DNA of 64,000 nucleotides, from UHGV virus genome UHGV-0209088. One strand, 5' to 3'. The notes under the pieces were generated by a model, which saw only the letters and a list, made by a program, of their open reading frames with translations, was not told the origin of the DNA and did no database searches. Source of the DNA: a virus. This document shows positions 1,542 to 28,662 of this stretch, piece by piece. The stretch's first letter is position 1; each line of letters starts with the position of its first letter. The translations under genes were made by a program, and so were the position numbers.

Positions 1542-1570
1542 ATACTATTGCATTACTCAAAAATGAGCAA
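1542..1570 (-). promoter_or_regulatory. sigma70-like promoter (TTGCTC-N17-TAGTAT) overlapping palindromic operator TTACTCAAAAATGAGCAA
   Basis: read on minus strand: -35 TTGCTC (1565-1570), 17-nt spacer, -10 TAGTAT (1542-1547); palindrome 1553-1570 is member of a repeated family. Confidence 0.5.
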
Positions 1571-1576
1571 GCGTTT

Positions 1577-2059
1577 TTAAACATTATTTCTTGATTTCCC
1601 GCTTACCCAGACAACAACACGCTGATACGGTACCTCCATCTTCTCAGCGATATCTTTACGCGATACCCCGGCTTCAAAGAGCTGGCGGCAAAGGCTGACA
1701 TCTTCGTCGCTGTACTTCTTCCTCAGCAGAGGCAGGCCGATTGCCCAGCATTTCTTTTTGATCGACGCCTCGGTTCGGTTGAGGGCCACCGCCATTTCCG
1801 CAGGGGTCATCGTCTGGTGGTTGGCCTCGAGGAAGGCCATCTCTTCGAATGACCACTCAACCCAGTTCTGCTGTCTTACCGGCTTGATCCCGGCCCGTTG
1901 CATCCTGGTGCGGACGGAAGAGAATGAACGGCCCATCATGGCGGCTACCTGGCGCGCCGGATACAGACGCGCGAGCTCGCGCAGCCTATCCATGTCCTCG
2001 GTAGTCCAGCGCGTTCTGTCGAAGTTGGTTCTCACCTTTCTCGGTGTTTTGGTGCCCAT
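1577..2059 (-). CDS. putative DNA-binding protein with two tandem HTH-like repeats (160 aa)
   Basis: ORF with RBS ggag; internal duplicated W..EE..L...T..E.A..L.RT..S...RC motif suggests tandem HTH/SANT-like repeats. Confidence 0.55.
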   Translation of the reverse strand: MGTKTPRKVRTNFDRTRWTTEDMDRLRELARLYPARQVAAMMGRSFSSVRTRMQRAGIKPVRQQNWVEWSFEEMAFLEANHQTMTPAEMAVALNRTEASIKKKCWAIGLPLLRKKYSDEDVSLCRQLFEAGVSRKDIAEKMEVPYQRVVVWVSGKSRNNV

Positions 2060-2094
2060 AAAGCTCCAAAGCCCGCGCTAGGCGGGCAGGTAAG

Positions 2095-2502
2095 TTATTG
2101 CCAGGTCACACCTGCAGCGACGAGCTGGCGACAGTGACGGATGACTTCGGCGCGGGTTACATCACCAATGCGCCACGGAGAGTAGAACGGCTCCTTGTCC
2201 ACCGGCTCGCCACCGGAGATTTCAATGTCATCTGCATTGCCGATCCCATCCCAGTCGGTCGTCTGCTGGATCAGAGCGCTATGCAATAGGAAGAATGCAT
2301 CGTAACTGTCGGCCTCACCCCAGTAGTCAACGGTGCAAACCTGCCATTCCTGGTACCAGAGTCCACCGATATAGGCTTCATCAAGGGTGAACGCCTCTGG
2401 CGGATACTGCTTCGGCATAAGAGCAATCAGGAGACGCATCGCCTCAGTGCTAAACTTCTTCTCAATGCGCGCTTTGAGGTTGGTGTACTTTTTACGTCCC
2501 AT
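2095..2502 (-). CDS. hypothetical protein (135 aa)
   Basis: ORF with strong RBS gaggaaagg. Confidence 0.6.
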   Translation of the reverse strand: MGRKKYTNLKARIEKKFSTEAMRLLIALMPKQYPPEAFTLDEAYIGGLWYQEWQVCTVDYWGEADSYDAFFLLHSALIQQTTDWDGIGNADDIEISGGEPVDKEPFYSPWRIGDVTRAEVIRHCRQLVAAGVTWQ

Positions 2503-2544
2503 ATCCTTTCCTCAGTGATGCCCGCGCGGGGCGGGCAGGGTGGA

Positions 2545-3189
2545 TTATTCGTCGTCTTCCTTATCGGTGACGGTCGTCAGGTCGTAGAACTGGCCATAGG
2601 TCAGCTGCTGGAACTCTGGCGGGATCTCGACGCTGCCGTGGCGCACCTCTCCAGGCTCCTTCGCCTTGCTGTTCGGGATCGCGAACAACAGGCAGTCATC
2701 GCGTCCCGGGCAGCGGCCACCGTAGGTGGTGAGCATGCTGATACCCCAGCCGCGATCAGCTGCGCTCCCGAAGCCGGTTCGCAGTACCCCGTAGTGATCA
2801 ATGATGTAGGCTTGCCATACCGGCAGGCTCTTCAGCTTCTCATTTGCCGCGCGAAGCGACGCATCCAGCTTCTTGTTGAACTCCCGGCCATCGGCGGTGT
2901 TGGCCTTGCCGCGAGCAATGATGACGTGCTGGTCACCTAAGAAGTCGCGTCTCTTGACAGTCATCTGGCAGGGGAACTGGTGGTCCGAAGGCCACGCCAG
3001 ACTCTGGATCAGCCCACCCTTATCGCCCCAACCGGCGCTGTCGATAAAGCCTGCGGCGCCAAACTCGCCAAGGATGCCGTTGATGATCTCCTTGCGCTGC
3101 TCTTCGATAGCGTTGTACCCGTCAATCAGGGCTTTAACCGCTGGACCCTCGACTTTGTAATAGTCGTAGTGCTTTGCGTTCTTTGACAT
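2545..3189 (-). CDS. hypothetical protein (214 aa)
   Basis: ORF with RBS gagagg; tightly packed after PAPS-reductase gene. Confidence 0.6.
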   Translation of the reverse strand: MSKNAKHYDYYKVEGPAVKALIDGYNAIEEQRKEIINGILGEFGAAGFIDSAGWGDKGGLIQSLAWPSDHQFPCQMTVKRRDFLGDQHVIIARGKANTADGREFNKKLDASLRAANEKLKSLPVWQAYIIDHYGVLRTGFGSAADRGWGISMLTTYGGRCPGRDDCLLFAIPNSKAKEPGEVRHGSVEIPPEFQQLTYGQFYDLTTVTDKEDDE

Positions 3190-3200
3190 ATGTTCCTCTC

Positions 3201-3980
3201 TTATTGTCGCTGGCTCGGCATGCGTGCGGCCAGCTCGTCACGGGTGTCGCCCGAAAACATCTGGATGATGCCGTCGAACGTGTTCTTGCCGCGGTACATC
3301 ACCAGGTCGGTACCGCAGCGGGATTCCATCATGCGAACGTCGTCGGCGGTCAGGATGTCCCAGAACTGGCGCGCCAGCTCCGGTTCGTCCTTGGCGGCCA
3401 GCGCGATTTTCTGGATGGATTTCTTGATGCAGAAGACGCAGTTCCCCAGGTGCTCGGGGATCTGCAGGTCGAACGCCTGCTGGCTCCACCAGTTGATGAC
3501 ATCCTGCTTCCCGAAGTCGGAGATCTCGGCCAGGTAGTGAACTGGCGGCTTGCCGGTCAGGCGCTTCGGCTCGTCGGCGCGAATGCCTATCCACGTATTG
3601 TAGGCATTACGGCCAATGTGCTCGTCACAGTATTTCTTGAACGGCCCCAGCTTCATGCGGTCTGTGCAGAACTCGCCGCCGACATATGGCGTGCCGTATT
3701 TGCGGAGCATATCGACCCACGGCGTCAGGTCTGGGCCGATCTCATCGAGCGTTACGACGCGGTAGCCGTTGCCCTTGCCCAGAACAGGGTTCACCACCAC
3801 GCGAAGGCAGACCAGATCAATGCCCCAGTGTTTCACCGCGTCACGGATGAAGTCATAGGTTTTCGGGTGCTCGGCACCGGTGTCCATGAACACAAAGCGG
3901 GTGTCCGGGTCACGCTGGCGCATCAGGTGCGCGAGATAGGCAGAGGTGCGCCCACCGGAGAAACTTACGACATTGATCAC
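3201..3980 (-). CDS. phosphoadenosine-phosphosulfate (PAPS) reductase family protein (259 aa)
   Basis: N-terminal PP-loop SFSGGRTS (SGGxDS type), overall PAPS_reduct-like composition; GTG start with RBS gaggaaagg. Confidence 0.8.
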   Translation of the reverse strand: MINVVSFSGGRTSAYLAHLMRQRDPDTRFVFMDTGAEHPKTYDFIRDAVKHWGIDLVCLRVVVNPVLGKGNGYRVVTLDEIGPDLTPWVDMLRKYGTPYVGGEFCTDRMKLGPFKKYCDEHIGRNAYNTWIGIRADEPKRLTGKPPVHYLAEISDFGKQDVINWWSQQAFDLQIPEHLGNCVFCIKKSIQKIALAAKDEPELARQFWDILTADDVRMMESRCGTDLVMYRGKNTFDGIIQMFSGDTRDELAARMPSQRQ

Positions 3981-3998
3981 TATCCTTTCCTCGGTTGA

Positions 3999-4484
3999 TT
4001 ACTGGTTCCGCAGCTTGCGCAGCTGCGCTTTCACGGCCTCGAGCGAGCGGCCCAGGTGCTCAGCGATAGCCTTTTGCGTCATGCCCTGCTGGCGGAGAAG
4101 CAGGAGTTCCACATTCTGCTCAGGCGTCCACCGGGGCTTAATGAATGCCAGGCTGATGCCGAACTGCTGCGCCAGCTCATTCACATAGCGCTCGGACAGA
4201 CGCATGCTTTCTCCTATTCGCCATGCTGGCATCTGCCCGGCCCGAAGTGCGATCGCGTACCGGATGCGGCGGCGCCGGTTGATGCGTCTGGCGTTCCGCT
4301 TCCAGTATCTCTGGTTCGAAGCGCTGATGGCCTGCTTTCGTTCTGCCCGCTGCCGCTCCTTACTGGCGCGCTCACACGCCTTGCAGTAGCTTCGCAGGCC
4401 GTCTGCCCGTCGCTTGTCCCTGGTGAAACTGCTGGCCGGTTTATCCTCTTCGCACCGGCAGCAGCGTTTAGTGTCAGGGTTCAT
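3999..4484 (-). CDS. putative transcriptional regulator, N-terminal Cys4 zinc finger plus C-terminal sigma70-region4/LuxR-like HTH (161 aa)
   Basis: CCRCEEDK...CKAC cysteine cluster; C-terminal LLLRQQGMTQKAIAEHLGRSLEAVKAQL typical HTH. Confidence 0.6.
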   Translation of the reverse strand: MNPDTKRCCRCEEDKPASSFTRDKRRADGLRSYCKACERASKERQRAERKQAISASNQRYWKRNARRINRRRRIRYAIALRAGQMPAWRIGESMRLSERYVNELAQQFGISLAFIKPRWTPEQNVELLLLRQQGMTQKAIAEHLGRSLEAVKAQLRKLRNQ

Positions 4485-4488
4485 TACA

Positions 4489-4824
4489 TCAGTGGGCTAT
4501 CGCAGCCCGGCGAGCGCGGCATTGTTCGCAGTCGCATTCGCCGTTGTCAGTACGGTTCTTAGTGACCAGGGCGTCCACCACCTCATACGGCACAGTCGCG
4601 CCGTTCATTTTCAGCATTTCGAGGCCAGCGATGAGAGCATTATCAGCCAGCTCTTCGTCGGAATTGATCAGGGCGCAAATACGCTTTTTCTGCATGATTT
4701 CATCGTTCCCGGTCACAACGCACGCCACGTATGGGATACGGTTAGTGGTGCAAACTTCGTGCAGCTCCGTGATGAGAGCGTTGAGCTTTTCTTCGACTTC
4801 AGGTGCCAGTTTAAAGGTTTTCAT
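4489..4824 (-). CDS. hypothetical protein (111 aa; start moved to MKTFKLAPEVEE)
   Basis: internal ATG with good RBS aaggaaa; upstream ORF extension lacks RBS. Confidence 0.55.
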   Translation of the reverse strand: MKTFKLAPEVEEKLNALITELHEVCTTNRIPYVACVVTGNDEIMQKKRICALINSDEELADNALIAGLEMLKMNGATVPYEVVDALVTKNRTDNGECDCEQCRARRAAIAH

Positions 4825-4837
4825 AGAATTTCCTTGG

Positions 4838-5020
4838 TTAGAGAATAGTGGGGTGTGCCTTTCCGGTAGCCGCGAAATGCTCGGCTTCCGCTTGCGTTCT
4901 GAAATACTGACCGAGACAGCCATGCTGGCCCAACCACGGATACTCACGCCCGGCGTGGTATGCTATTTTTCCAACTGCTACGGCGTACTGGTTCTCGCCG
5001 GTCTTGATGAGTGTATGCAC
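4838..5020 (-). CDS. hypothetical small protein (60 aa, GTG start)
   Basis: RBS gaggaaagg 6 nt before GTG; longer ORF-track version overlaps upstream gene. Confidence 0.4.
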   Translation of the reverse strand: MHTLIKTGENQYAVAVGKIAYHAGREYPWLGQHGCLGQYFRTQAEAEHFAATGKAHPTIL

Positions 5021-5060: not shown

Positions 5061-5453
5061 TTAGAACTCGCCGTAACGGCCAGATTGTGGATCGAGCGGC
5101 GCGAACTTCGCTTCCATCTGGTCCTGATGCGCGGCGTCCATCCAGCCAGCGTCTTCAAGGTGGCGCTCGTAGGCGGCGTCAGGGTCGGAATGGTCGCAGA
5201 ACTGCTCGTAAAGGTAGTCCTCGGTTTCTTTGTGCCATTCCTTAAAAGAGGACAGCGCGGCGTTAATCATCACCGGAGACTGGGAAGCGAACAGCACCTT
5301 CTTCTCGGTGCGCTCAGCACTGCCAGTCAGTGCCCAACGCAGGACAACGACTTTGCCCTCGCCACCGATTTCGACGTTCAGGTTATGGGCCGGCTTGGTC
5401 ATTACCAGATCAGTCACCAGCAATTCGAATTCTTCTTTGGTCATGCGTTTCAT
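5061..5453 (-). CDS. hypothetical protein (130 aa), first gene of leftward operon
   Basis: ORF with RBS gaggcaagg. Confidence 0.6.
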   Translation of the reverse strand: MKRMTKEEFELLVTDLVMTKPAHNLNVEIGGEGKVVVLRWALTGSAERTEKKVLFASQSPVMINAALSSFKEWHKETEDYLYEQFCDHSDPDAAYERHLEDAGWMDAAHQDQMEAKFAPLDPQSGRYGEF

Positions 5454-5650: not shown

Positions 5651-5679
5651 ACTATATTGCATTACTCAAATATGAGCAA
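5651..5679 (-). promoter_or_regulatory. sigma70-like promoter (TTGCTC-N17-TATAGT) overlapping palindromic operator TTACTCAAATATGAGCAA
   Basis: minus strand -35 (5674-5679), -10 TATAGT (5651-5656), 17-nt spacer; palindrome 5662-5679. Confidence 0.55.
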
Positions 5680-6660: not shown

Positions 6661-7202
6661 CAGTTCCACCTTTACCGCAAAGCATTGATTGCGCGCATAA
6701 ACCTTATGGAACTGAAAACGGAACCAGCGCTCAGTTCCAGTTCCAGTTCCATCTACAGTTCCATTTGCTCAGCGGCTCATTAACGGAGGCGGAACTGCCA
6801 GCCGGAACTTCTGGCCGGAACTGCTGGTTCCGCTACGCAGATCAATAGCTTACGCTGATTACACCACCCCGTAAGCATGAGTCAGTTCCGGGGCGGTTCC
6901 AGTATTTATCTATATAAATCAGGTGCTTGCTCAAAATTGATGAAATGGAACTGCTTTTTTGCGGAAAAATACAATACCCATACATGTGTGTGAGTGGGGG
7001 TGAGGGTGTAACAGATTTGATCATGACACCTCATTCTCACGTAGTCCTATGTAGGGTGTAGAATTCAGTTCCAGTATGTGTGTTTGTCTCTATATAATAT
7101 ATATATCTTATTGATAAATAATAATAATAATAATAGGAGGGGATGGAACTGGTGCCGGAACTTTGCCGGAACTGGATGGAACTCAGCAGCACACCCAGTT
7201 CC
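6661..7202. repeat. iteron cluster: 17 copies of GGAACT(G)/(C)AGTTCC core in two subfamilies (GCCGGAACT and ATGGAACTG), including a triple tandem AGTTCC
   Basis: counted cores at 6661,6708,6732,6739,6745,6756,6791,6804,6817,6883,6947,7066,7145,7157,7168,7178,7196 in non-coding DNA. Confidence 0.8.
7091..7135. repeat. AT-rich tract with (AAT)6 microsatellite, embedded in iteron region (possible DNA unwinding element)
   Basis: tatataatatatatatcttattgataaataataataataataata. Confidence 0.6.
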
Positions 7203-7320
7203 ATTACCCGGAAATAGTAATAAACTCCCGCATTGTCACTAAAAATATTCCTAAATCTGTTCTCTACTTGCTCATTTTTGTTTTATACTCCCGGCATCAC
7301 AGGTCAGTGGTGTCAACAGC

Positions 7321-7860
7321 ATGGTCGAATACTTCACGATTCCCGAGCTGCCCGATAAGCAAATGTTCAGATGCGAACGCAGGAATGCCACTCTCCAGGT
7401 GGCTTCCTGTGCTTCCATGTGGAAGGCAGCCAACAGCAAGAACAGCGCCGAGTGCAACATGTCATGCCGGACTTGCAGTCTGGGTGCCGTGCATGCTGGT
7501 GAGGGCGACGCACAAATGTCCCACCTGCGTGGCATCGAGATCTGCTCGCGGTGTCATCGTGTCGGTATGCGCCTGATAGGCGGTGATATCTGCGTCAGCT
7601 GCTGGAACAGGCAGAGGGAAGTCATCATCGGGAAGAATGCCCGCGGGCGTAAACCTCTCAACCATCCCCCCATTGTGCCGCACGAAATCACCGTCATGAC
7701 CGGGAAGAAACTGGTCACCATCAAACGCACCCACGCGGTCTGTACCGAAGAGCTGGTTATCTCAGCACTGCGCGACAGCACCAGGCAGGTGTTCTTTGGG
7801 TTTCATTCGAAAGGTCAGACAGGTGTGCAGGCTATGCCTGTGCAGGGGGAATTGTTTTGA
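7321..7860 (+). CDS. cysteine-rich (multiple CxxC) putative zinc-binding protein (179 aa)
   Basis: ORF immediately downstream of iterons; at least 4 CxxC pairs. Confidence 0.55.
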   Translation: MVEYFTIPELPDKQMFRCERRNATLQVASCASMWKAANSKNSAECNMSCRTCSLGAVHAGEGDAQMSHLRGIEICSRCHRVGMRLIGGDICVSCWNRQREVIIGKNARGRKPLNHPPIVPHEITVMTGKKLVTIKRTHAVCTEELVISALRDSTRQVFFGFHSKGQTGVQAMPVQGELF

Positions 7861-8210
7861 TGCAGAGTATGCAACAATCCGAGGCGTTACAGTCAGATTC
7901 TGCAACGCTTAAAAAAAACGAGCAATGGGAGCTGGAGCCGCATATCTGCCGTCACTGCTTCGGAAGGCTGGTCTCCCGCCCGGTTCCTGGCGGTGCCCTG
8001 CGCATCTACCGCTGCAGCAACTGCGGGGCTGAGGCCCAGCACAGCCACGCCGACGCACTGTGCTGCTGCGGCATCAAGATTAAGCGCGCCGGACGCAACG
8101 GCACCAAATCGGGATCCATGGTCGATGCCGGCGTGCGGTGCATTCCGAACCCTGAGCGATCGCTGATGTTCCCGAGCGAGATTGTGGCCAGCGAGGTCGT
8201 GCGAAAATGA
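7857..8210 (+). CDS. cysteine-rich small protein (117 aa)
   Basis: overlapping ATGA start; CRHC...CSNC...CCC motifs. Confidence 0.5.
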   Translation: MMQSMQQSEALQSDSATLKKNEQWELEPHICRHCFGRLVSRPVPGGALRIYRCSNCGAEAQHSHADALCCCGIKIKRAGRNGTKSGSMVDAGVRCIPNPERSLMFPSEIVASEVVRK

Positions 8211-8584: not shown

Positions 8585-8599
8585 AAATCAGCTCTCAAA

Positions 8600-8612
8600 G
8601 CTGATGCTCTAA
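8600..8612 (+). promoter_or_regulatory. conserved post-stop motif GCTGATGCTCTAA (copy 1 of 4)
   Basis: identical 13-mer (Y at position 6) at 8600, 12441, 15562, 23104, each 0-18 nt after a stop codon. Confidence 0.4.
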
Positions 8613-8660: not shown

Positions 8661-8679
8661 TAGGGCGCACATAGGGCGC
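8661..8679 (+). promoter_or_regulatory. tandem direct repeat TAGGGCGCACATAGGGCGC (copy A of 6), T7/K11-promoter-like
   Basis: 19-bp element recurring 6 times upstream of rightward genes. Confidence 0.5.
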
Positions 8680-8714
8680 AGATTATTCAAAAAAGATAAG
8701 TTGACAGGTGGTAT

Positions 8715-8732
8715 TTACTCAAAAATGAGTGA
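8715..8732 (+). promoter_or_regulatory. palindromic operator-like site TTACTCAAAAATGAGTGA
   Basis: member of TTRCTCA-N4-TGAGYAA family; 40 nt upstream of gene start 8775. Confidence 0.4.
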
Positions 8733-8774
8733 TAAGATTACTGCGTGTTCAACAACAACCCAAGGATATACATC

Positions 8775-10169: not shown

Positions 10170-10425
10170 ATTCGAACCGGTGAGAACCGTCGCGGACATG
10201 AAAACCCTCGACCTTGAGCAGGTGTCCGATGGATACCTCGCAGCCATTGACGGCTATGTCCTGAAAGGCACTGAGAGCCGCAGTTTCGTGCATGGCTGGC
10301 GCAACGGCATGGTCGACGCTGGTCAGGTATGCCCAGATGAGCACCAGCAGGCCCTGGCGCGCGACATCATCGCCACCAAGTACGATCTCTTTGACCGCGG
10401 GGGCCAGGATGGCAATTCTGATTGA
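10162..10425 (+). CDS. hypothetical protein (87 aa, GTG start)
   Basis: RBS ggagg 5 nt before GTG 10162; upstream part of track ORF is R/S-rich out-of-context overlap. Confidence 0.45.
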   Translation: MDKFEPVRTVADMKTLDLEQVSDGYLAAIDGYVLKGTESRSFVHGWRNGMVDAGQVCPDEHQQALARDIIATKYDLFDRGGQDGNSD

Positions 10426-11002
10426 TAGCGGCACGCCGGAGGCGGATAAGAACTTCTGGGCCACTACGCCGGAGTGCTTTCAGGATGGGCAGGCGCTCTA
10501 CGGTCGCCCGTTCGCGGTCGATGTGTGCGCCGAGCCGCTGACTGCGAAATGCCAGCGCTACTACGGCAACCCGGCACTGTACGACGCGGTGCTGGACTAC
10601 CGCACCGGCGCTGATGTCCGCGCCATGATGCGTGAATCCGGCAACATCTGCGTCGCCCTCGACTCTCTGGCGGTCGATTGGCCCGAGCACTGGTGGTGCA
10701 ATCCACCGTTCGATCACAAGCTGGCATTCATCGGGCAGGCCCGCCGTCAGCAGGCCGCAGGCCGTCCCGGCATGATGCTGCTGCCGTATGAGCCGCTGGC
10801 TGGCTGGTGGCGCAAGCGCCTTGCGTTCGGCGTCATCGTCTACGAGCCTGATGGCCGCTACCAGTTCTGCGAGCGTGACGGCGTGACCCGCAAGCAGGGT
10901 GCAAACTTTGGTTCCGCGCTGGTGGTATTCCCGACCCATCACATAGGCGAGTCTCCGCGCATAAGATTTGAACGCGGTATTGGACAGCTTGCTCAAAAAT
11001 GA
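10409..11002 (+). CDS. phage-type DNA N6-adenine methyltransferase (pfam05869 Dam-like, 197 aa)
   Basis: WATTPECF near N-terminus, D.CA...K..YY, and WWCNPPF catalytic motif, the hallmark order of small phage Dam MTases. Confidence 0.75.
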   Translation: MAILIDSGTPEADKNFWATTPECFQDGQALYGRPFAVDVCAEPLTAKCQRYYGNPALYDAVLDYRTGADVRAMMRESGNICVALDSLAVDWPEHWWCNPPFDHKLAFIGQARRQQAAGRPGMMLLPYEPLAGWWRKRLAFGVIVYEPDGRYQFCERDGVTRKQGANFGSALVVFPTHHIGESPRIRFERGIGQLAQK

Positions 11003-11059
11003 AATAGAATATCGCTTTCCGCGCCGGGCGGCTCCCGGCATCCTCCCGAGGAAAGGAAT

Positions 11060-11275
11060 GTGAAACTACTCCGCGCATTTCGGGGCATCTTTGGCTCACC
11101 GGCGTCTAACATCTGGTTCGGCGGATACTTCCTGTGCCGCTTCCTGTGGCTCGTGAAAGATTACCCGCATAGCGGGCGCACAGCATGGGACATCGCCTAC
11201 GTCGTCATCATCGGCATCGCTGCCGTCTACCTCTCCACCCGTGGCATCCGCAGATTCCGTAAGGGGTGCGCATGA
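11060..11275 (+). CDS. small membrane protein (71 aa)
   Basis: RBS aggaaagg; two hydrophobic segments. Confidence 0.45.
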   Translation: MKLLRAFRGIFGSPASNIWFGGYFLCRFLWLVKDYPHSGRTAWDIAYVVIIGIAAVYLSTRGIRRFRKGCA

Positions 11276-12153
11276 GCGAATTCAACTATCTGACCGGGCG
11301 CCCGGAGCTATTCGAGAACGCGCCAGCCGACGCGCTGGTGGTGCTGGAGCATGAGGACGGCCGCCTGTTCTATGCGATCGCCCACGACCTGGGCGCGAAA
11401 TACTGGAACGAGGACGGCTCCCCGGGCAGCAAGGTCGGCCTGATTGCCCTGCACAAGAAAACCCGCGTCATTGCCAGCCGCGTGCGTACTGGGGGCTTGC
11501 GCCCGGCAGAACCGAAGCGAGACCCGATCCCAAAATCCCGGATTGAACGCATCCAGCAGGCGCAGAACGGCCTGAAGAAGGCTATCAGTCAGCCGTTCCC
11601 TGTTGCGCCAAAACCTGAGCCTAAGCCAGCGCCGGTGAAGGTTGACCCGCAAAAGGTCGCGCCGAAGCGCAAAACCCCAAACGTTGCCTGCCCGAAGTGC
11701 GGCGTCACCGGCATTCACGCCTGCATGGGCGCGCCCGTTTCGTGGAGCGAGCAGGACAAACAGCGCTTGGATGACGCCGTGAAGCAGATCAACGCTGCGG
11801 AGACGAAACCGCGGATAGTAGCTGGCGATGGCTTCGTGTCCATCCTCGATTTGGCTAATCGTTCAGGCTGCGCGGTGCTGACCATCTACGCCAAAGGGAC
11901 ATTCATGGTTACCACTGCGGTGGCCAGTTCCGGCGACCGTATTGACGTTCAGCTCGATCCAAAGAGCGGTAAAATCCGGGTCCGCAAGGTTGAGCAGGGC
12001 GGGGCTAAGCTGGCCGGAGGGCAGACATTCTCATGCGCTGGCGGCGCGAGACTATTCCACTTTGCAAATGGCGCGAAGAAGGTTCGCATCGAACTGACCA
12101 AAGTAGATGGCTGGTGGCAGGGTCAGGCTGAGCTGGTGCGGGTGAAGCCATGA
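11272..12153 (+). CDS. hypothetical protein with Pro/Lys-rich linker and CPKCG zinc-ribbon-like motif (293 aa)
   Basis: ORF, RBS aagggg before ATG 11272. Confidence 0.6.
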   Translation: MSEFNYLTGRPELFENAPADALVVLEHEDGRLFYAIAHDLGAKYWNEDGSPGSKVGLIALHKKTRVIASRVRTGGLRPAEPKRDPIPKSRIERIQQAQNGLKKAISQPFPVAPKPEPKPAPVKVDPQKVAPKRKTPNVACPKCGVTGIHACMGAPVSWSEQDKQRLDDAVKQINAAETKPRIVAGDGFVSILDLANRSGCAVLTIYAKGTFMVTTAVASSGDRIDVQLDPKSGKIRVRKVEQGGAKLAGGQTFSCAGGARLFHFANGAKKVRIELTKVDGWWQGQAELVRVKP

Positions 12154-12440
12154 GCCAGCGAATGGTAAGGCCGTTGCCGGTGTGGACCGAGAAGGCCACC
12201 GGTAAGCAGGTATGGGCGCTGCAGGTAGGGCGCATCATCCCGTGCCCGCGTGGAGTGTCCATCTACCCGAAGGACGAGCGCTACGCCGCGTTTGAGATGC
12301 CGCTGTGGTGGTCTGCGACCACACGGGTGGCCGAGGGCGATTTCGTCGTGTGGGAAACAGGTGAGCCGGTGTTCAGCTGGAAGCCTGCCGAGTTCGAAGC
12401 GCGGTTCCGGCCTGCTGCCGACAGCAAAACAGACCCGTAG
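12150..12440 (+). CDS. hypothetical protein (96 aa)
   Basis: ATGA-coupled ORF. Confidence 0.55.
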   Translation: MSQRMVRPLPVWTEKATGKQVWALQVGRIIPCPRGVSIYPKDERYAAFEMPLWWSATTRVAEGDFVVWETGEPVFSWKPAEFEARFRPAADSKTDP

Positions 12441-12453
12441 GCTGATGCTCTAA
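12441..12453 (+). promoter_or_regulatory. conserved post-stop motif GCTGATGCTCTAA (copy 2)
   Basis: starts immediately after TAG stop at 12438-12440; followed by GCGGCC..GGCCGC hairpin. Confidence 0.4.
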
Positions 12454-12501
12454 CACGGCAAAGCCAGAGGATACGCGGCCTCGCGGGGCCGCAAATCAAT
12501 T

Positions 12502-12520
12502 TAGGGCGCACATAGGGCGC
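12502..12520 (+). promoter_or_regulatory. tandem direct repeat TAGGGCGCACATAGGGCGC (copy B)
   Basis: ends 20 nt before ATG 12541; leaves no room for a sigma70 promoter downstream. Confidence 0.5.
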
Positions 12521-12540
12521 TAAATCACCAAAAATGAGGA

Positions 12541-12885
12541 ATGAAGATGGACAATCAGCACCGCAAGATCGTCGGCTATCGCGAGCTGACACAGGCCGAA
12601 ATCGACCTGATGAACGAAATCAAAGCGAAAGGGAAGGAGCTGTTAGCGCTCCATGACAAAGTGGTGGAGTTGATTGGCGAACAGGATTTGGTGCCAGCAA
12701 TCATGGCTGCTGCAGACCATAACTCTAAGGGTATGTCTTACATGATCCCACCTAAGCAGGACGCTGATGTCATGGCGCGACACGCAATCGCAGAACCACG
12801 CCGCTGGGCGTCCATCGGCAAGACCGATCTCCAGAAGGGCATCATGGCGCTGGTGCGCGCCGTAGCCCAGCCGACTGACTGCTAA
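12541..12885 (+). CDS. hypothetical protein (114 aa)
   Basis: strong RBS tgagga. Confidence 0.6.
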   Translation: MKMDNQHRKIVGYRELTQAEIDLMNEIKAKGKELLALHDKVVELIGEQDLVPAIMAAADHNSKGMSYMIPPKQDADVMARHAIAEPRRWASIGKTDLQKGIMALVRAVAQPTDC

Positions 12886-13405: not shown

Positions 13406-14026
13406 ATGACCGAACCGAAGAAACCAACCAGGGCGAGGAAAGCGCCCGCGAAACCCGGCGCCACAAAGGCGAGCGGGGTATCCGCTATTGGGCAGAAGGT
13501 CACCGACGCCGCCAAGACTGGCCGCCGTGGCTTTTCCGATGAGCTGAAAGCTGCCGCCCGCGCGCTGTGGGAGGGCGACCCGAATATCAGCATGGCTGAT
13601 GTCGCCGCAGAGGTGGGCGTCACCGTGCGCGCCATGCGGCGCTGGAGCCAGGATGAGAACTGGTCGAAGCGTCAGGCCGATATGTCCGAGCGCGCTCATG
13701 CGGCTGCCGACCAGTACAAGAACAAGCTCTCTGAGCTGGGGCCGGAGATCACCACCGAGCAGCAGAAGCAGGCCGAGTCCGACGCAGCGGAGGAGACCGC
13801 CGTGCAGCTGCGCGCCCAGGTGCTCGACCGCCACCGGAAGGAATGGAACGCGCCGCGCAAGCTCTCCTACGACGCGGTGAAGGCCAAGAACTTCGACCAG
13901 ATGAAGATGGCCAAAATCACGGCTGAGGCGCTGACCCTGATCCAGAACGGCGAGCGCAAGGCGTGGGGCATCGATTCCGGGGGCGATGGGCAAACCAACG
14001 TGAAAGTCATTATTGAGCGTGAGTGA
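13406..14026 (+). CDS. putative terminase small subunit / HTH DNA-binding protein (206 aa)
   Basis: FSDELKAAARALWEGDPNISMADVAAEVGVTVRAMRRWSQDE resembles the transposase-like HTH of Terminase_2-type small subunits; sits directly upstream of ParB-MTase as in many enterobacterial prophages. Confidence 0.45.
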   Translation: MTEPKKPTRARKAPAKPGATKASGVSAIGQKVTDAAKTGRRGFSDELKAAARALWEGDPNISMADVAAEVGVTVRAMRRWSQDENWSKRQADMSERAHAAADQYKNKLSELGPEITTEQQKQAESDAAEETAVQLRAQVLDRHRKEWNAPRKLSYDAVKAKNFDQMKMAKITAEALTLIQNGERKAWGIDSGGDGQTNVKVIIERE

Positions 14027-15543
14027 TGGATAAAAACCTCGAAAAGATGCTGGGCTTCCGGCCTGATGCCATCCCGCAAATGCGGCTCAAGCCGGTTGAA
14101 TCTCTGGTGGCCTACGCCCGCAACACCCGCACCCATTCAAAGGTGCAGGTCGAGCAGATCAAGCGCTCTATGCTGGAGTTCGGATGGACGAACCCCATTC
14201 TGGCGGATGATATGGGCATCGTGGCCGGGCATGGTCGCGTTATGGCTGCCGAAGAGCTGTACAAGGCCGGTGAGCAGATCCTCTTCCCGAACGGCACGCC
14301 GATCCCCATCGGCCAGGTGCCGGTCATCGATTGCACCGGCTGGTCAGACGCGCAGCGCCGGGCGTACATCATCGCGGATAACAAGCTGGCCCTGAACGCC
14401 GGCTGGGACGATGACATGCTGAGCCTCGAGCTGAAGGAGCTGGACGCGGCGGGCTATGACCTGGATGTCATCGGGTTCGATGAGAACGAGCTCGCGGAGC
14501 TGCTGGCCGATCCCGAGCTGGATCTTGATAGCGACAAAGACCCGGATGAGACACCGGACCTGCCTGATGCGCCGGCGAGCCGCGAGGGCGACACCTGGAT
14601 CCTCGGCGCGCACCGGGTTCACTGCGGCAGCGCGACCAGTATGGATGCATGGGACCACCTGATGCAGGGCGAACTGGCCAACGCGGTATGGACCGACCCG
14701 CCATACAACGTCGATCTGGGCCTGAAGAACAAGCGGATGGATAAAGCCATTGGCGGCGAGCGGTTCGCCACTGGTGCGATCGCCAACGACAAGATGAGCC
14801 TGGAAGAGTTTGAGGCGCTGCTCTACGACGCGTTCAGCTGCCTGTTCTCGGTCATGCAGGCAGGGGCGGCCATCTACGTGGCCCATTCCGACAAGGCCGG
14901 GCGCGAGTTCCGCGAGCAGTTCGAAAGGGCTGGCCTGCACTTTAGCCAGATGCTCATCTGGAAGAAGAACGTCCACGTTCTGGGGATGGCCGATTTCCAG
15001 CCCATTCACGAGCCGATCATGTACGGCTGGAAGAAGGGGAGCCGTCACAAGTGGCACGGCGGCCGCAAGCAGACCACCGTCATGGAGATAGGCGAGGGCG
15101 GTCCGATCTCCCGGGATGAAGCCGGGCGCTGGCTCATCAAGGTGGGTGACAGCGTGCTGGTCGTGGACGGCCAGGCGGAACTGGCGGAGATCCCCTCGAC
15201 CGTGTTCAATGTGCCGAAGCCGGAGAAGTCCGGCCTGCACCCGACGCAGAAGCCGGTGGAGCTCATCGAGCGCATGCTGCGCAACTCTGCCCGCGGCGGC
15301 GATATCGTGGTGGATGCGTTCGGCGGTTCGGGCTCAACGCTGATTGCCGCTGACCGTCTGGGCATGTGCGCCAGGCTGATGGAGCTGGAGCCGCGCTTTG
15401 TCGATGTCATCGTTCGCCGCTGGCAGGACTACACCGGGCGCCGGGCGGTTCACGCGCTCACCGGCGAGGAATTCCCCGAAGAGGGGCAGGAGCGGAAGAC
15501 CGGCCCAATCCTCACCGACAACAGCGATACGGATGTGTTTTAG
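14026..15543 (+). CDS. ParB-like nuclease domain fused to beta-class DNA (N6-adenine/N4-cytosine) methyltransferase (505 aa)
   Basis: N-terminal ParB/Srx-like region; DPPYNVDLG (motif IV) followed later by FGGSGSTLIAA (motif I). Confidence 0.85.
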   Translation: MDKNLEKMLGFRPDAIPQMRLKPVESLVAYARNTRTHSKVQVEQIKRSMLEFGWTNPILADDMGIVAGHGRVMAAEELYKAGEQILFPNGTPIPIGQVPVIDCTGWSDAQRRAYIIADNKLALNAGWDDDMLSLELKELDAAGYDLDVIGFDENELAELLADPELDLDSDKDPDETPDLPDAPASREGDTWILGAHRVHCGSATSMDAWDHLMQGELANAVWTDPPYNVDLGLKNKRMDKAIGGERFATGAIANDKMSLEEFEALLYDAFSCLFSVMQAGAAIYVAHSDKAGREFREQFERAGLHFSQMLIWKKNVHVLGMADFQPIHEPIMYGWKKGSRHKWHGGRKQTTVMEIGEGGPISRDEAGRWLIKVGDSVLVVDGQAELAEIPSTVFNVPKPEKSGLHPTQKPVELIERMLRNSARGGDIVVDAFGGSGSTLIAADRLGMCARLMELEPRFVDVIVRRWQDYTGRRAVHALTGEEFPEEGQERKTGPILTDNSDTDVF

Positions 15544-15561
15544 CTGTAAACAGAGTTCTAA

Positions 15562-15574
15562 GCTGACGCTCTAA
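15562..15574 (+). promoter_or_regulatory. conserved post-stop motif GCTGACGCTCTAA (copy 3)
   Basis: 18 nt after TAG stop. Confidence 0.4.
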
Positions 15575-15577
15575 GTA

Positions 15578-15612
15578 GAAACGGCAATGCAAATCAATGC
15601 GTTGCCGTTTTC
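15578..15612 (+). terminator. rho-independent terminator (acggcaatgc...gcgttgccgt + TTTTCGTTT)
   Basis: perfect 7-bp GC-containing stem plus T-run. Confidence 0.6.
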
Positions 15613-15621: not shown

Positions 15622-15640
15622 TAGGGCGCATATAGGGCGC
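15622..15640 (+). promoter_or_regulatory. tandem direct repeat TAGGGCGCATATAGGGCGC (copy C)
   Basis: same family. Confidence 0.5.
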
Positions 15641-15655
15641 ACCGCAAAGTATTTC

Positions 15656-15684
15656 TTGCTCATATTTGAGTAACTGCGTTACAC
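15656..15684 (+). promoter_or_regulatory. sigma70-like promoter TTGCTC-N17-TTACAC overlapping palindrome TTGCTCATATTTGAGTAA
   Basis: -35 15656-15661, -10 15679-15684; followed by structured 95-nt leader. Confidence 0.5.
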
Positions 15685-15778
15685 TTCACTTGAGGTAACG
15701 GCTATTCCCGCGTTACCGGACCCAGTTCTACTGGCGTGACAAAAACAATCAACCGCGAACCAACGCGGTAGGGATTTT

Positions 15779-17560
15779 ATGAATATTACATATGGCTCTG
15801 TGTGCAGCGGCATCGAAGCTGCATCCATTGCATGGGAGCCGCTGGGGCTGAAGCCAGCGTGGTTTTCCGAGATTGAGGCTTTTCCGTCTGCTGTTCTGAA
15901 GCACCACTGGCCGCACGTCAGCAACCTCGGAGATATGACCAAAATCGCCGCCGCTGTGCGTGCTGGCACCGTTCCTGCTCCAGACATAGGCGTGGGTGGC
16001 ACACCTTGTCAGGCATTTTCAGTCGCTGGCGCTCGCGCTGGCCTTTCAGACCCTCGCGGTCAACTCACCATTTCATACGTGGAATTAGCCGATGCAATTG
16101 ACGACACCCGAACCGCAGCCGGAAAACAGCCAGCCATCTTCGTCTGGGAGAACGTGCCCGGAGTCCTCAGCTCCAAAGACAACGCTTTCGGAGCCTTCCT
16201 TGGACTGCTTGCCGGGGAAGACTGTGAGCTACAACCGCCAGGGGGAAAATGGAAGAACGCTGGTTGTGTGCTTGGACCCAAAAGAACAATCGCGTGGCGG
16301 GTCGTTGATGCCCAATATTTCGGAGTGGCCCAACGACGCCGCCGTGTGTTTGTTGTCGCAAGTGCTCGAACCGATTTCGATCCCCGAAAAGTATTTTTTG
16401 AGTCCGAAGGCGTGCGCCGGGATACTGCGCCGAGCCGAAGCGCGGGGTCGGCAGTTGCCGCCCTTACTGCGAATGGCGTTGGAACATGTGGTGCGGACGA
16501 CAACCAAGGACAAGCAGGACACCTGATCGCTGCGTTCGGCGGTGGGAACTGCTCAGGCGCGCTGGATGTAGCGGCCTGCCTGACAGCGCGCGGCCAGCGC
16601 ATTGACTTCGAAGTCGAGACCTTTCTCGCCCAGTACAGCAGCACCGGGCAGGGCGCATGGGCTGAGGGCTTTGGCACGCTGCGCGCCAGAGAGCAGGAGA
16701 GCCACGAGCATCTGGCGGTGATGGCCGTTCACGGCACGCAGGATCCTGACACGCTCAACGAGCTGGCGCACACGCTGGGGCGCAATCAGGGGCAGGAGAA
16801 CGCCGTCATCGCGTTCAACAGCAAAGACCACGGGCAGGATGCCGCGGAGGAAATATCCCCGACGCTGCGCTCCGCTGGTCACGGTACCAGCCACGCGAAC
16901 GCTGGCGCGCCGCCTGCTGTGGCCTATGGCTTCCAGCCGCGTATTGCCCGCAACGGTCGCGGCGATATGGGCGATGTTTGCCACGCTCTTACTGCGGAGG
17001 CCGGGGAGACCGGGAAGGGGGATTCTGCGCCGCATGTGGCCGTTGCCTTCGCTGAGAACAGCCGCGGCGAAATCCGCCTTCAGGATGGCGACGGCGGCAT
17101 CACCGGCCCGCTGTCTACCGGGGGCGGAAAGCCAGGGCAGGGTTATCCGGCAGTGGTCGCCTTTCAGGAACGCGGTCGCGCTGATGGTCGCACGCTGGAG
17201 ATTAACGGCGATCTGGCCTACGCGCTGACAGCGCCAAACGGCGGTGGCCGGGCGCAGGAGCGGAACATTGTCGATTTCCGCACAATGGCCGTGCGTCGCC
17301 TGACGCCGCGCGAGTGCGAGCGCCTGCAGGGCTTCCCCGATGACCACACGCTCATCCCATACGGGAAGGCTATCAGGCCGGAGAAGCTGGAAGCGGACTA
17401 CGCAAAATATCTGATGCGCGGCGGTCGCATGACCTTTGACGAGTGCTGCCGCGCTGCCGCTGATGGCCCGCGTTACAAGGCAATCGGCAATTCAATGGCG
17501 GTGCCGTGCATGGCTTGGATCGGTCGCCGCATCCTGCAACAGCTCGAGGGGGCTATGTGA
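15779..17560 (+). CDS. DNA (cytosine-5) methyltransferase, Dcm-like, with ~330-aa Gly-rich variable/TRD region (593 aa)
   Basis: motif [14 protein letters not shown] motif [15 protein letters not shown] motif FVWENVPGV, motif VIII QRRRVFVV, motif [16 protein letters not shown]. Confidence 0.9.
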
Positions 17561-18240
17561 AAGATATCTACCAGAAGATAAACGGCGATGAGTACCGCGG
17601 CGTGTGGGTCGTAGGTGACCTGCACGGCTGCTACACCAACCTGATGAACCGGCTGGACGCAGTCGGTTTCGACCCGGCGCAGGATCTGCTGGTTTCGGTT
17701 GGCGACCTGATTGACCGCGGGGCGGAGAACGTCGAGTGCCTGGACCTGATTAATCAGCCGTGGTTCCGGGCAGTGCGCGGAAACCATGAGCAGATGATGC
17801 TGGACGCGCTGCTCAATGGGGGCAGCTTCGGTCACTGGATGTCGAACGGTGGTGGCTGGTGGCACAGCATGGATTATGAGCAGGATATGCGGCTGAAATC
17901 CCTGCTCCCCAAGGTAGCTGGTCTGCCGCTGATCATCGAGCTGGAGAAGGGTGGGAAGAAGTTCGTCATCTGCCATGCTGACTACCCGAAAGAAGAGTAC
18001 GAATTCGGAAAGCCGGTAGTCGAGCAGGATGTCATCTGGAACCGCGAGCGTGTCAGCACGTCAATGGATCTGGTGGATAAGGTGCCGGTGAATGACCTGC
18101 TCATTCCTGGCGCTGATCTGTTCATCTTCGGGCATACGCCAGCGCGACAGCCAATGCGTTTCAGCAACCAGCTCTACATCGACACCGGTGCCGTGTTCAC
18201 CGGCAATCTGACACTGGTCAATCTTGGGGAAGTTCTGTGA
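17557..18240 (+). CDS. serine/threonine protein phosphatase (lambda PPase / PrpA-like metallophosphatase, 227 aa, GTG start)
   Basis: GDLHG, GDLIDRG, GNHE motifs; GTG in ATGTGA overlap with MTase stop, RBS gaggggg. Confidence 0.85.
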
Positions 18241-18425
18241 AGACGCTGCTGAAGGTGGTTCTGTGGGTGGCGGGGATAGCCGCCTTTATCTGGCTGCTTG
18301 GGGTTGCCGGTGAACATGATCGCCAAGACTGCGAGGTGCGTATCGCGCAGGAGCTTGGCACAACCGCTCGCTACATCGACGGCCATTGCATGGTGAAAGG
18401 GTACGGGAGGGTGGATGGCCGGTAA
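18237..18425 (+). CDS. small membrane protein (62 aa)
   Basis: GTGA overlap, RBS ggggaag; N-terminal TM segment. Confidence 0.45.
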
Positions 18426-18783
18426 ACGCCTCAACATCATCCTTGAGCCACGGAAGGCCGGGATCTGCCTCAAGGCGCAGGTGCGCGCAACGCTGGTGGC
18501 GCTGGATGGCCGCTGGTTCATCGGTACCAACGGAGTGAGATCACCGCAGGAGGTCTGCCCGCGCGCTGGCTCTCCCCACTTCACCGGGTATGAGGCGTGC
18601 AAGGGTATCTGCCGTCAGGAGTCGCATGCAGAAGTGAGCGCCATCAATCTGGCGGGAGAAGCCGCCCGCGGCGCCACGATCTACCTCGAGGGGCACTTCG
18701 CCGCGTGTCCGGATTGCCAGGCGGCAGCCGACGCAGCTGGCATCGCGCAAATCATCATCGGCGCACCGCCAGTGCAACAGTAG
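18415..18783 (+). CDS. cytidine/deoxycytidylate (TadA/dCMP) deaminase-like zinc-binding protein (122 aa)
   Basis: HAE (ESHAEVSAI) and PCxxC (ACPDCQAA) spaced ~28 aa, the CDA-fold zinc ligand signature. Confidence 0.6.
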   Translation: MAGKRLNIILEPRKAGICLKAQVRATLVALDGRWFIGTNGVRSPQEVCPRAGSPHFTGYEACKGICRQESHAEVSAINLAGEAARGATIYLEGHFAACPDCQAAADAAGIAQIIIGAPPVQQ

Positions 18784-18847
18784 ATCATTTTGGTTGGATC
18801 CCGCCTCAATAGACGCTATTGGTGCCTTCCGTAACAGGAGGGCACCT

Positions 18848-19207
18848 ATGAGCCGCGCACTTACCCCTGAAGAACTACGCAATAACGTCCTGAACCACGT
18901 CCGCCTGATGGTCGAATACTGGGCCACCCTGCCGGGCCTTGATGAGCACGCGCGCTGCGATGGCGTGGCGTTCTCGATCCTCACCATGATTGACGGCAGC
19001 GCAGACCAGCCGCCGATGGCGCTGGTGGCGCTCTCCAGCGATGAGGACAAGCAGTATTACGTCGAGAAGGGCGAGAACTGGGTCGAGCACGGCACCGTCA
19101 TCAACGATGATGTGATGCTGCACGAGGAATATAACGCGCCTGAGCGCGCCGAATATGCCAAGTCCGTCATGAAATCAGCTGTGAAAGCTGACGACCAGAA
19201 GAACTAA
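18848..19207 (+). CDS. hypothetical protein (119 aa)
   Basis: RBS aggaggg before ATG 18848. Confidence 0.55.
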   Translation: MSRALTPEELRNNVLNHVRLMVEYWATLPGLDEHARCDGVAFSILTMIDGSADQPPMALVALSSDEDKQYYVEKGENWVEHGTVINDDVMLHEEYNAPERAEYAKSVMKSAVKADDQKN

Positions 19208-19247
19208 CCTCTATAAATTCAATCACCTGCGCTGCGCCCTGACATTC

Positions 19248-19266
19248 TAGGGCGCAGGTAGGGCGC
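19248..19266 (+). promoter_or_regulatory. tandem direct repeat TAGGGCGCAGGTAGGGCGC (copy D)
   Basis: same family; preceded by palindrome gcgcccta...tagggcgc hairpin. Confidence 0.5.
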
Positions 19267-19281
19267 AATGTTCAATATTAC

Positions 19282-19310
19282 TTGCTCAAATATGAGTAAT
19301 TGAGTTACAT
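19282..19310 (+). promoter_or_regulatory. sigma70-like promoter TTGCTC-N17-TTACAT overlapping palindrome TTGCTCAAATATGAGTAA
   Basis: -35 19282-19287, -10 19305-19310; followed by leader homologous to 15685-15778. Confidence 0.5.
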
Positions 19311-28660: not shown

Positions 28661-28662
28661 TT

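Follow-up and report, generated by a model that had tools for sequence, protein, structure and literature searches.

An 18-bp palindrome dispersed over predicted sigma-70 promoters in a phage related to PHB04 and ST4

The DNA analysed here (the window) comprises 64,000 nucleotides (nt) of the virus genome UHGV-0209088; about 30 kb of the same phage fall outside it. Gene calls and Pfam scans indicate a phage-like content throughout. The genes located between 1 and 6.6 kb are oriented leftward and are followed by a 635 base pair (bp) repeat-rich divergent region (6686-7320), beyond which a long rightward arm begins. This arm is rich in DNA methyltransferase genes (at 10292, 14023, 15779, 19403 and 29061), and continues with the terminase (36063), portal (40583) and major capsid protein (45352) genes and with tail and baseplate genes up to position 64000. 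An 18-bp palindrome, which probably serves as an operator, is dispersed over both arms and is the subject of this analysis.

The major capsid protein shares 91% of its residues with its counterpart in Aeromonas phage ST4 and 67-81% with the counterparts in Bordetella phage PHB04, Pseudomonas phages Dolphis and Jeremy, E. coli phage ECML-606-1 and Yersinia phage fHe-Yen8-01; the genomes of these phages all measure 90-95 kb. The window belongs to the PHB04/ST4-like myoviruses of about 90-95 kb. Its structural half is colinear with ST4; its left arm is almost wholly different and is the most variable part of the genome. The family appears largely temperate, since integrase homologues occur in most related loci (a tyrosine integrase in the case of ST4) and since one relative is located within the Microvirga lupini chromosome. 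ECML-606-1, a more distant member, has no integrase. The integrase, recombination and replication modules are not in the window. An overlapping public contig, L021, reaches about 10 kb to the left of the window and ends within the helicase gene; the control region is expected about 1.5 kb beyond this end. Megablast of the early region against phage, plasmid and complete E. coli genome collections detected no close relatives, a protein search with the exact L021 helicase C-terminus returned only one unrelated fragment, and a helicase profile search of genome contigs retrieved a single locus, that of Microvirga lupini.

The palindrome has the consensus form TTRCTCA-W4-TGAGYAA, an inverted repeat of 7+4+7 bp whose half-site centres are 11 bp apart. 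The exact consensus TTRCTCAAAWATGAGYAA is present at 1553-1570, 5662-5679, 15656-15673 and 19282-19299, and was never obtained in 100 shuffles. When up to three mismatches were allowed, 11 distinct places matched in the whole window, against 0.11 expected. The site at 8715-8732 differs from the consensus at one position (TGAGTGA), as does the site at 28603; there are two mismatches at 39342, and three each at 6927, 10989, 40475 and 7268. A symmetric position weight matrix (PWM) built from the full sites recovered the same 11 sites at 13.8-32.5 bits, the top score over 20 simulated windows being 13.4. The minimal core TCAWWWWTGA occurs 11 times in the window (0.53 expected). The initial annotation had proposed a palindromic operator at ten places; the repeat is real, these ten being the first ten of the 11 sites recovered, and 7268 is an addition. 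A similar frequency in coding DNA, which that annotation had named as telling against a regulatory role, was not observed: nine of the 11 cores are intergenic, for an intergenic share of just 10% of the window according to rough gene calls made here from the GC content at third codon positions (p = 5e-8). One non-intergenic exception, at 10989, overlaps the last codons of a Dam-like methylase gene. The sites are spread over 1.5-40.5 kb, and a sixth full site is located on L021 (10299-10316 of the contig), about 3.2 kb to the left of window position 1, where a terminator is followed by TTGCTCATATTTGAGTAA, 5 nt and TTATAT. As judged from these sequences, the preferred half-site appears to be TTACTCA and the preferred form approximately TTACTCA-W4-TGAGTAA, with TCA-W4-TGA as the family-wide core.

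Table 1. Palindromic sites with their predicted promoter elements, and other repeated motifs of the window. The gap is the distance from the end of the 18-mer to the -10-like hexamer; scores are PWM bits.
Feature	Position	Strand	Gap, -10-like hexamer and remarks	Bits
P1, full operator/promoter TTGCTCATTTTTGAGTAA	1553-1570	-	5 nt, TAGTAT (1547-1542)	29.2
P2, full operator/promoter TTGCTCATATTTGAGTAA	5662-5679	-	5 nt, TATAGT (5656-5651)	32.0
Degenerate site TTGCTCAAAATTGATGAA	6927-6944		within iteron-rich divergent region	19.9
Half-site TTGCTCATTTTTGTTTTA	7268-7285	+	gap -2, overlaps TATACT (7284-7289)	14.3
P3, operator/promoter TTACTCAAAAATGAGTGA	8715-8732	+	gap 0, abuts extended -10 TG-A-TAAGAT (8733-8738)	26.4
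Half-site TTGCTCAAAAATGAAATA	10989-11006	+	gap -2, fills spacer of TGGACA (10981-10986)-18 nt-TAGAAT (11005-11010)	13.9
P4, full operator/promoter TTGCTCATATTTGAGTAA	15656-15673	+	6 nt, TACACT (15680-15685)	32.5
P5, full operator/promoter TTGCTCAAATATGAGTAA	19282-19299	+	6 nt, TACATT (19306-19311)	32.1
Site TTACTCAAAAATGATTAA	28603-28620	-	3 nt, TACAAT (28599-28594)	25.5
Site TTACTCAAATATGATGAA	39342-39359	-	1 nt, TAACAT (39340-39335)	22.8
Degenerate site TTATTCATTTTTGATTAT	40475-40492	-	1 nt, TATACT (40473-40468); putative leftward promoter	13.8
Direct repeat TAGGGCGCA-N2-TAGGGCGCA	8661-8680, 12502-12521, 15622-15641, 19248-19267, 23165-23184, 31793-31812	+		
(T/A)CAG-N9-GCTGA	~8588-8612, 12430-12455, 15560-15575, 19175-19195, 23093-23117, 31713-31735			
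GTCGTGAYG	13360, 40561, 43735, 50208, 59596, 61413, 63964	+	variant at 36040	

The sites were read toward the nearest co-directional gene and examined for a -10-like hexamer, defined by at least four matches out of six, A and T being required at positions 2 and 6, respectively (Table 1). At ten of the 11 sites such a hexamer starts at a distance of -2 to +6 nt from one end of the 18-mer, the exception being 6927, where no convincing -10 was found on either strand. By a rough estimate, a hexamer of this kind occurs in a nine-position window with a chance of about 40% in AT-rich DNA, which gives about 1e-3 for ten sites out of 11. A co-directional gene starts within about 210 nt in eight of the ten hexamer-coupled cases, but not at 28603 and 40475. 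The gap between palindrome and -10 takes the values -2, 0, 1, 3, 5 and 6 nt, the palindrome always lying between about -35 and -10. With a gap of 5-6 nt, the left arm places TTGCTC at the -35 position with a spacer of 17-18 nt. With a gap between -2 and +1 nt, it is the spacer that the palindrome fills, and an extended -10 (8715) or a separate -35 (TGGACA at 10981) is present. The arms vary with these arrangements: a left arm used as -35 reads TTGCTC, keeping TTG, opposite a right arm TGAGTAA, and sites abutting the -10 combine a left arm TTACTCA with a right arm TGAGTGA, which provides the TGn of the extended -10. Since the register is not fixed, the palindrome is not itself a promoter element at a set position. 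We argue, from this variable register and from the asymmetries that track promoter needs, that it represents an operator overlaid on putative sigma-70 promoters.

The initial annotation had read TTGCTC as a -35 hexamer located 17 nt from the -10 in four promoters. This holds for the two leftward ones, with TAGTAT (1542-1547, minus strand) and TATAGT (5651-5656, minus strand). At 15656 and 19282 the promoters are retained, but the -10 hexamers proposed there, TTACAC and TTACAT, lack the A at position 2; TACACT and TACATT, with an 18-nt spacer, fit better, and relatives have TACACT, TATACT or TACAAT at the equivalent position. A simple sigma-70 consensus scan detected the promoter at 10981-11010 but called none of the full-palindrome sites, because TTGCTC matches just three of the six positions of TTGACA.

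The predicted promoters would head much of the early and accessory gene content. P1 reads leftward into 1373-1501, 963-1190, 121-909 and further. P2 is preceded by a terminator (5732-5715, minus strand) and would drive the leftward unit that extends from 5061-5453 through 1577-2059. On the right arm, the 7268 site coincides with the putative promoter of the first rightward gene (7321-7860). Besides its main operator, P3 has a weak additional site 32 bp further upstream, TTATTCAAAAAAGATAAG at 8683-8700. The 10989 site belongs to the putative promoter of 11060-12440, and an Acb2/Tad1 anti-defence gene (12541-12885) lies downstream in the same unit. P4, with a terminator upstream (15578-15611), heads a methyltransferase gene (15779-17560) and the genes that follow, and P5 heads another one (19403-20653). 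The 39342 site marks a putative leftward promoter for 39129-39269 and 38680-39072. P2, P4 and the L021 site look like the starts of separate, insulated transcription units, owing to the terminators located just upstream. The 28603 site has no co-directional gene nearby on the minus strand; read on the plus strand, it is followed by a hairpin in which the ribosome-binding site of 28663-29061 is sequestered, and it may act as an antisense promoter or as a roadblock. This GC-rich hairpin with a T-run (28621-28662, CCCTCGT...ACGAGGGTTTTTT) is located immediately 5' of the ATG and buries the only Shine-Dalgarno-like GAGG of that gene, an arrangement kept in ST4. Lying beside the operator site, it may serve as an attenuator or in translational control.

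The core TCA-W4-TGA is enriched 14- to 29-fold in the window, ST4 and PHB04 (six copies in ST4 for 0.43 expected, seven in PHB04 for 0.24 expected). In ECML-606-1 it is not enriched (two copies for 1.1 expected). ST4 carries the motif at orthologous promoters, despite diverged flanking intergenic DNA. The 7268 18-mer is identical in the two phages. At the counterpart of 8715, the main operator, the -10 and the direct repeat found upstream of P3 (Table 1) are all kept, with the same distance of 52 nt from repeat to -10, and an upstream half-site-like sequence, read by eye, is also present. The methyltransferase promoter that corresponds to P4 and P5 has a perfect palindrome in ST4, TTGCTCATATTTGAGCAA, followed by 6 nt and TACACT. 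Two left-arm promoters of ST4 come after terminators, with TTGCTCAATTATGAGTAA, 5 nt and TAGTAT in one case and TTGCTCTTTTTTGAGCGA in the other. The counterpart of 40475 reads TTGCTCAATTTTGATTGG-T-TATACT and faces the ST4 tRNA cluster; in front of the ST4 recombination operon, ACTCATTTTTGAGCT fills the spacer of TTGCAC-18-TACAAT, and further ST4 sites lie near tRNA-Lys and the integrase. In PHB04, the core abuts TACAAT or GATAAT at several promoters. The same designs are found in uncultured relatives, with TTGATCAAAAACGAGTGA directly followed by TATACT, or TTGCTCAAATATGAGTAA followed by 5 nt and TTATTA.

In relatives, a divergent control region separates the recombination operon from an operon that begins with a small helix-turn-helix (HTH) gene and the helicase, and both promoters carry the same operator. 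The initial annotation had seen scattered operons rather than a lambda-style single immunity region. The dispersed operators bear this out, but the relatives do possess a lambda-like divergent control region, outside the part of the genome covered by the window. As read from the sequences, the system combines a central control region with dispersed operators.

An IMG/VR scan for TTGCTCAWWWWTGAGTAA yielded, among the matches listed, mostly single copies in apparently unrelated contigs, and these matches are about as numerous as we roughly estimate for chance plus family expansions, so that the scan added little beyond confirming the relatives. In at least eleven loci (L046, L085, L099, L102, L140, L096, L129, L051, L057, L128 and L062), apparently other phages with contigs of 25-67 kb, TTGCTCAWWWWTGAGTAA is followed by 3 nt and TATTAG or TATTAA. 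These occurrences in other phages may mean that a similar operator was adopted independently, or may stem from chance and family expansion.

In agreement with the initial annotation, no CI-like repressor appeared among the window proteins scanned with Pfam. Several other proteins were considered as binders and set aside. An HU-like protein and two Cys-rich proteins persist in ECML-606-1, which has no palindrome enrichment; a Xis-like HTH_17 protein is 54-65% identical in phages devoid of the palindrome; and an AraC-like protein (22238-23086) tracks the direct repeat instead. The remaining candidate is a Cro-like HTH protein of 69-90 amino acids, encoded by the first gene of the helicase/single-strand-binding protein/primase operon, directly upstream of the helicase gene. 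Its candidate recognition helix reads [IV][AS]RATP[DN]RW. The ST4 copy, ST4_044, is annotated as "SaPI-like transcriptional repressor", and the match to the Pfam family HTH_26 (Cro/C1) is borderline (21.8 for a cut-off of 22). With the homologue from Microvirga/L022 as query, nine of 50,697 phage records match, all of them from this family. In relatives, the promoter of the small HTH gene itself has a half-operator over the -10, for example TCAAATACGA directly followed by TACACT or TTACTCATTTTTGA directly followed by TACAAT, and the divergent recombination promoter has a full operator within its spacer.

Co-variation between this protein and the palindrome was examined in 46 IMG/VR loci, reduced to non-redundant sets of 30 and 5, the core being sought within 450 bp upstream of the gene. 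For the 30 loci with the helix RATP[DN]RW, the core was found upstream in 19 (strict) or 25 (relaxed), and for the five with RAT[VY]ERW it was found in none by either count. The association between helix type and core presence gives p = 0.013 (strict) or p = 0.0008 (relaxed) by Fisher's test, values that are not corrected for phylogeny. The residue that follows the invariant Trp also tracks the half-site, Lys going with TGAT (17/21) and Arg with TGAG (11/18), with p = 0.01 and again no phylogenetic correction. This small HTH protein is the best available candidate for the binder, an identification to which we give somewhat less than an even chance on sequence grounds. In the phage studied here, its gene should lie about 11 kb to the left of window position 1.

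We consider it probable, although far from assured, that the palindrome is the operator of one phage-encoded dimeric HTH repressor that would occlude about a dozen dispersed sigma-70 promoters. The most economical reading has one regulator at work on dispersed single operators, and repression by occlusion is the best reading of the promoter geometry. A bound dimer would cover roughly -13 to -35 and would exclude RNA polymerase, so that one protein could silence all operator-bearing units together, in the lysogen, as an early shut-off in lytic growth, or both. The units under control would be most of the early and accessory transcription units of both arms, including several DNA methyltransferase genes, and the regulator would also control itself and the recombination operon from the central divergent region outside the window.

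Known systems share parts of this design. The initial annotation had invoked a P1-C1-like logic, and the logic stands, with operators dispersed over the promoters of separate operons (11 sites in the window and one on L021, ten of the window sites with a -10). Both phages have genomes of about 90-95 kb, and one operator type occurs at many scattered promoters, often over the -35. The P1 consensus ATTGCTCTAATAAATTT shares TTGCTC with the present palindrome, and TTGCTC is all that is shared with the annotated P1 operators Oc1c, Oc1d and Oc1e. A common family does not follow from this: P1 operators are asymmetric 17-mers, whereas 18-bp 7+4+7 palindromes are found here, and the phages are unrelated. 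P1 C1, a protein of 283 amino acids, binds its operator as a monomer. It was rejected as the binder, as a tblastn search of the window, of complete ST4 and PHB04 and of the other loci compared gave a best E value of 0.56 and no C1 homologue, about 30 kb of the phage lying outside the window. Lambdoid Cro/CI systems are similar in operator size (17-18 bp), in half-sites one helical turn apart, in the overlap with -35, spacer or -10, and in having a small Cro-like HTH gene first in an early operon beside a divergent region with operators on both promoters. Here, a palindromic operator overlaps the predicted core promoter at ten of the 11 sites, and likewise in ST4 and in uncultured relatives. 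In contrast to the tripartite OL/OR clusters of lambdoid phages, single operators are located at about a dozen dispersed promoters, and the control region of the relatives has one operator per promoter and the small HTH alone, rather than a lambda-style bistable immunity region. In the IncP plasmid RK2, scattered operons carry the same short palindromic operator and one or two small repressors, KorA and KorB, control the backbone. The use of one operator type at many scattered promoters of a mobile element is common to both cases, but the proteins and operator sequences are different, RK2 is a plasmid, and KorB, a protein of the ParB type, can also exert its effect from a distance. Finally, the many dispersed middle promoters of T4 have a TGCT-containing element that replaces or overlaps the -35 and precedes a normal -10 by 9-12 nt. 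The T4 MotA box (-30) is an asymmetric activator site that requires MotA and AsiA, whereas the present site is palindromic and variable in register; neither the MotA nor the AsiA family was detected among the window proteins scanned, which did not include every open reading frame.

Several points weigh against repression by a single small HTH protein. The co-variation statistics ignore phylogeny and rest on few independent lineages, and five of the 30 loci with the P[DN]-type helix have no core near the gene. The gene itself is not in the window and was not retrieved for this phage, being known from relatives. The 28603 site has no sensible downstream gene and the 6927 site has no -10. At the full sites, promoter function is predicted in spite of the mediocre TTGCTC hexamer that the sigma-70 scan passed over. 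A repressor that heads a replication operon is an odd design for the maintenance of lysogeny, and the scans of window proteins, and of ST4 proteins from the control region and the integrase flank, yielded no CI-type partner or S24 repressor. Also, by analogy with lambda CII, a protein bound on the -35 could activate.

The last point leads to a rival reading, in which a phage dimer placed over a weak -35 recruits or stabilises RNA polymerase. Lambda CII activates from TTGC-N6-TTGC, and class II activators work likewise. The poor -35 match of the full sites would suit such a mechanism, as would the weak rightward -10 hexamers (TACACT, TACATT, TAAGAT), and the ATPDRWRK of the candidate HTH resembles the lambda CII recognition helix. 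We nevertheless regard activation as unlikely, mainly because of the spacer-filling and -10-overlapping arrangements. The palindrome fills the spacer in TGGACA-18-TAGAAT (10981-11010), in the ST4 promoter TTGCAC-18-TACAAT and in TTGCGC-18-TACCAT of locus L023, and it overlaps the -10 at 7268 and in the small-HTH promoters, where a bound dimer would clash with polymerase. A variable register is moreover atypical of activators, and the leftward promoters have good -10 hexamers at 17-nt spacing. It is also quite improbable that a host DNA-binding protein, either a global regulator or a nucleoid protein, recognises the palindrome and that the phage promoters thereby join a host circuit. The core is indeed common to phages of Alpha-, Beta- and Gammaproteobacteria, and among the IMG/VR matches listed the 18-mer stands beside -10-like hexamers in apparently unrelated contigs. 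These matches are, however, near the rough estimate of chance plus family expansions, and the family members with a different small-HTH helix do not have the motif, which points to a phage-encoded determinant. To our knowledge, no host regulator has this site, the consensus sequences of LexA, CRP, FNR, Fur, IHF and Fis being at odds with it in sequence or spacing.

The initial annotation had put forward two proteins of the window, 1577-2059 and 3999-4484, as candidate regulators. Both have matches to sigma-70 region 4 or HTH families in Pfam and belong to the operon headed by P2, and 1577-2059 ends only 6 nt from P1. Neither has a homologue in ST4, PHB04 or other relatives, although the operator is shared by ST4 and uncultured relatives; the only trace in ECML-606-1 is a 39-residue partial match to 1577-2059 (E = 3e-4), and both genes lie in the variable left arm. 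We thus hold it very unlikely that either of them binds the palindrome. Equally remote, or slightly more so, are non-transcriptional roles, as cassette-boundary or recombination sequences, as RNA hairpins, or as KorB/parS-like centromere sites for the ParB-domain methyltransferase. It is true that swappable cassettes, accessory and methyltransferase, are flanked by the sites, that the leaders of P4 and P5 have sequence in common, and that a ParB-domain protein is encoded at 14023-15543. Such roles leave unexplained the coupling to a -10 in the direction of the genes and the promoter-driven asymmetries. In addition, the AU-rich stem lacks a T-tract, is located 5' of the inferred start sites and has no Rfam match, Rfam (gathering threshold) and tRNA scans of the window having found nothing; and we know of no ParB-methylase fusion that acts as a sequence-specific centromere binder.

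Other motifs are repeated in the window. The direct repeat TAGGGCGCA-N2-TAGGGCGCA has an 11-bp period and is present in six copies (Table 1), all intergenic, at the heads of gene cassettes and co-directional with the genes. ST4, PHB04 and 16 IMG/VR loci share it, among them relatives devoid of the palindrome. An AraC-family gene (22238-23086, plus strand) lies directly upstream of one copy of the repeat, as do its counterparts in ST4 (ST4_110) and PHB04 (gp048). The presence of this gene tracks the repeat in the genomes checked, both being absent from ECML-606-1. The repeat precedes P3-P5 in an unphased manner, and elsewhere is found only 10-25 nt 5' of a start codon. A role as a classical upstream activator site for P3-P5 was rejected, the distance to the -10 being 25-73 nt across loci with no helical phasing (hand count). 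The repeat is a candidate site for the AraC-like protein, or a candidate phage-specific promoter. About 50-70 nt upstream of each copy there is a (T/A)CAG-N9-GCTGA element, usually followed by YGCTCTAA, which resembles boxA. Five of the six copies of this element also have AAATCAA(T/G) or AATTCAAT further on, and some can form a 5-6 bp hairpin. An RNA hairpin at this place was discarded, the arms being sometimes direct rather than inverted in relatives, and we claim no RNA structure.

All seven copies of the motif GTCGTGAYG lie on the plus strand and the minus strand has none, for 0.69 expected per strand (Table 1). It is located 21-23 nt 5' of the ATG of late genes that have no Shine-Dalgarno sequence (portal, 43758, 59618, and the terminase with the variant), and is kept on the gene strand in ST4 (seven copies), PHB04 (nine) and ECML-606-1 (eight). 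Its placement looks like that of a -24 to -16 box which, together with a -10, would give leaderless late mRNAs. The layout resembles the Lpa-dependent late promoters of P1; a search for a P1 Lpa homologue found none.

Taken together, these elements could form a three-part promoter code in PHB04/ST4-like phages, made of operator-bearing sigma-70 early promoters under a lone Cro-like repressor with no CI partner, of the oriented TAGGGCGCA-N2-TAGGGCGCA element, and of the GTCGTGAYG late element. We advance this code as a whole tentatively and think it rather unlikely. If it is true, one small protein would set both the immunity and the early shut-off of a 90-kb genome that has no classical immunity region. 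The operator reading by itself, if correct, would constitute the first regulatory map for widespread and unstudied, mostly temperate myoviruses of about 90-95 kb, whose hosts include Bordetella, Pseudomonas, Aeromonas, Yersinia, E. coli and Microvirga; our literature searches turned up no account of these motifs or of how genes are regulated in the group. It would tell which genes are early, many of them methyltransferase and other anti-defence genes, and would suggest their joint silencing. It would further provide a compact operator/repressor pair for sigma-70 promoters, open to reuse as a genetic switch. The principle of a palindromic operator occluding a promoter is textbook knowledge; what would be new is the regulation in this phage family.

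Some minor features complete the description of the early region. The leaders of P4 (15686-15778) and P5 (19312-19402), both before methyltransferase genes, share CTGGCGTGAC...CAATCAA...CCGCG-N5-6-CGCGG just 5' of the ribosome-binding site and may represent a duplicated regulatory leader. The Acb2/Tad1-type sponge gene 12541-12885 (plus strand; PF24729, E = 3e-17) comes directly after a direct repeat; at the nucleotide level it is 95% identical to Klebsiella phages LASTA and SJM3. The minus strand encodes a MazE/MazF-like toxin-antitoxin pair at 21389-21980. The divergent region 6686-7320, inside which contig L021 begins, contains 16 copies of GGAACT/AGTTCC (52 in the whole window) and an AT-rich tract (7086-7135), and resembles a replication origin of the iteron type or a regulator array. 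The first two rightward genes, 7321-7860 and 7857-8210, encode Cys-rich proteins with multiple CxxC motifs that match neither Pfam nor PHROG families and are conserved family-wide, including in ECML-606-1. Their products are possibly zinc-ribbon DNA binders, for which the iterons or the late motif would be candidate targets.

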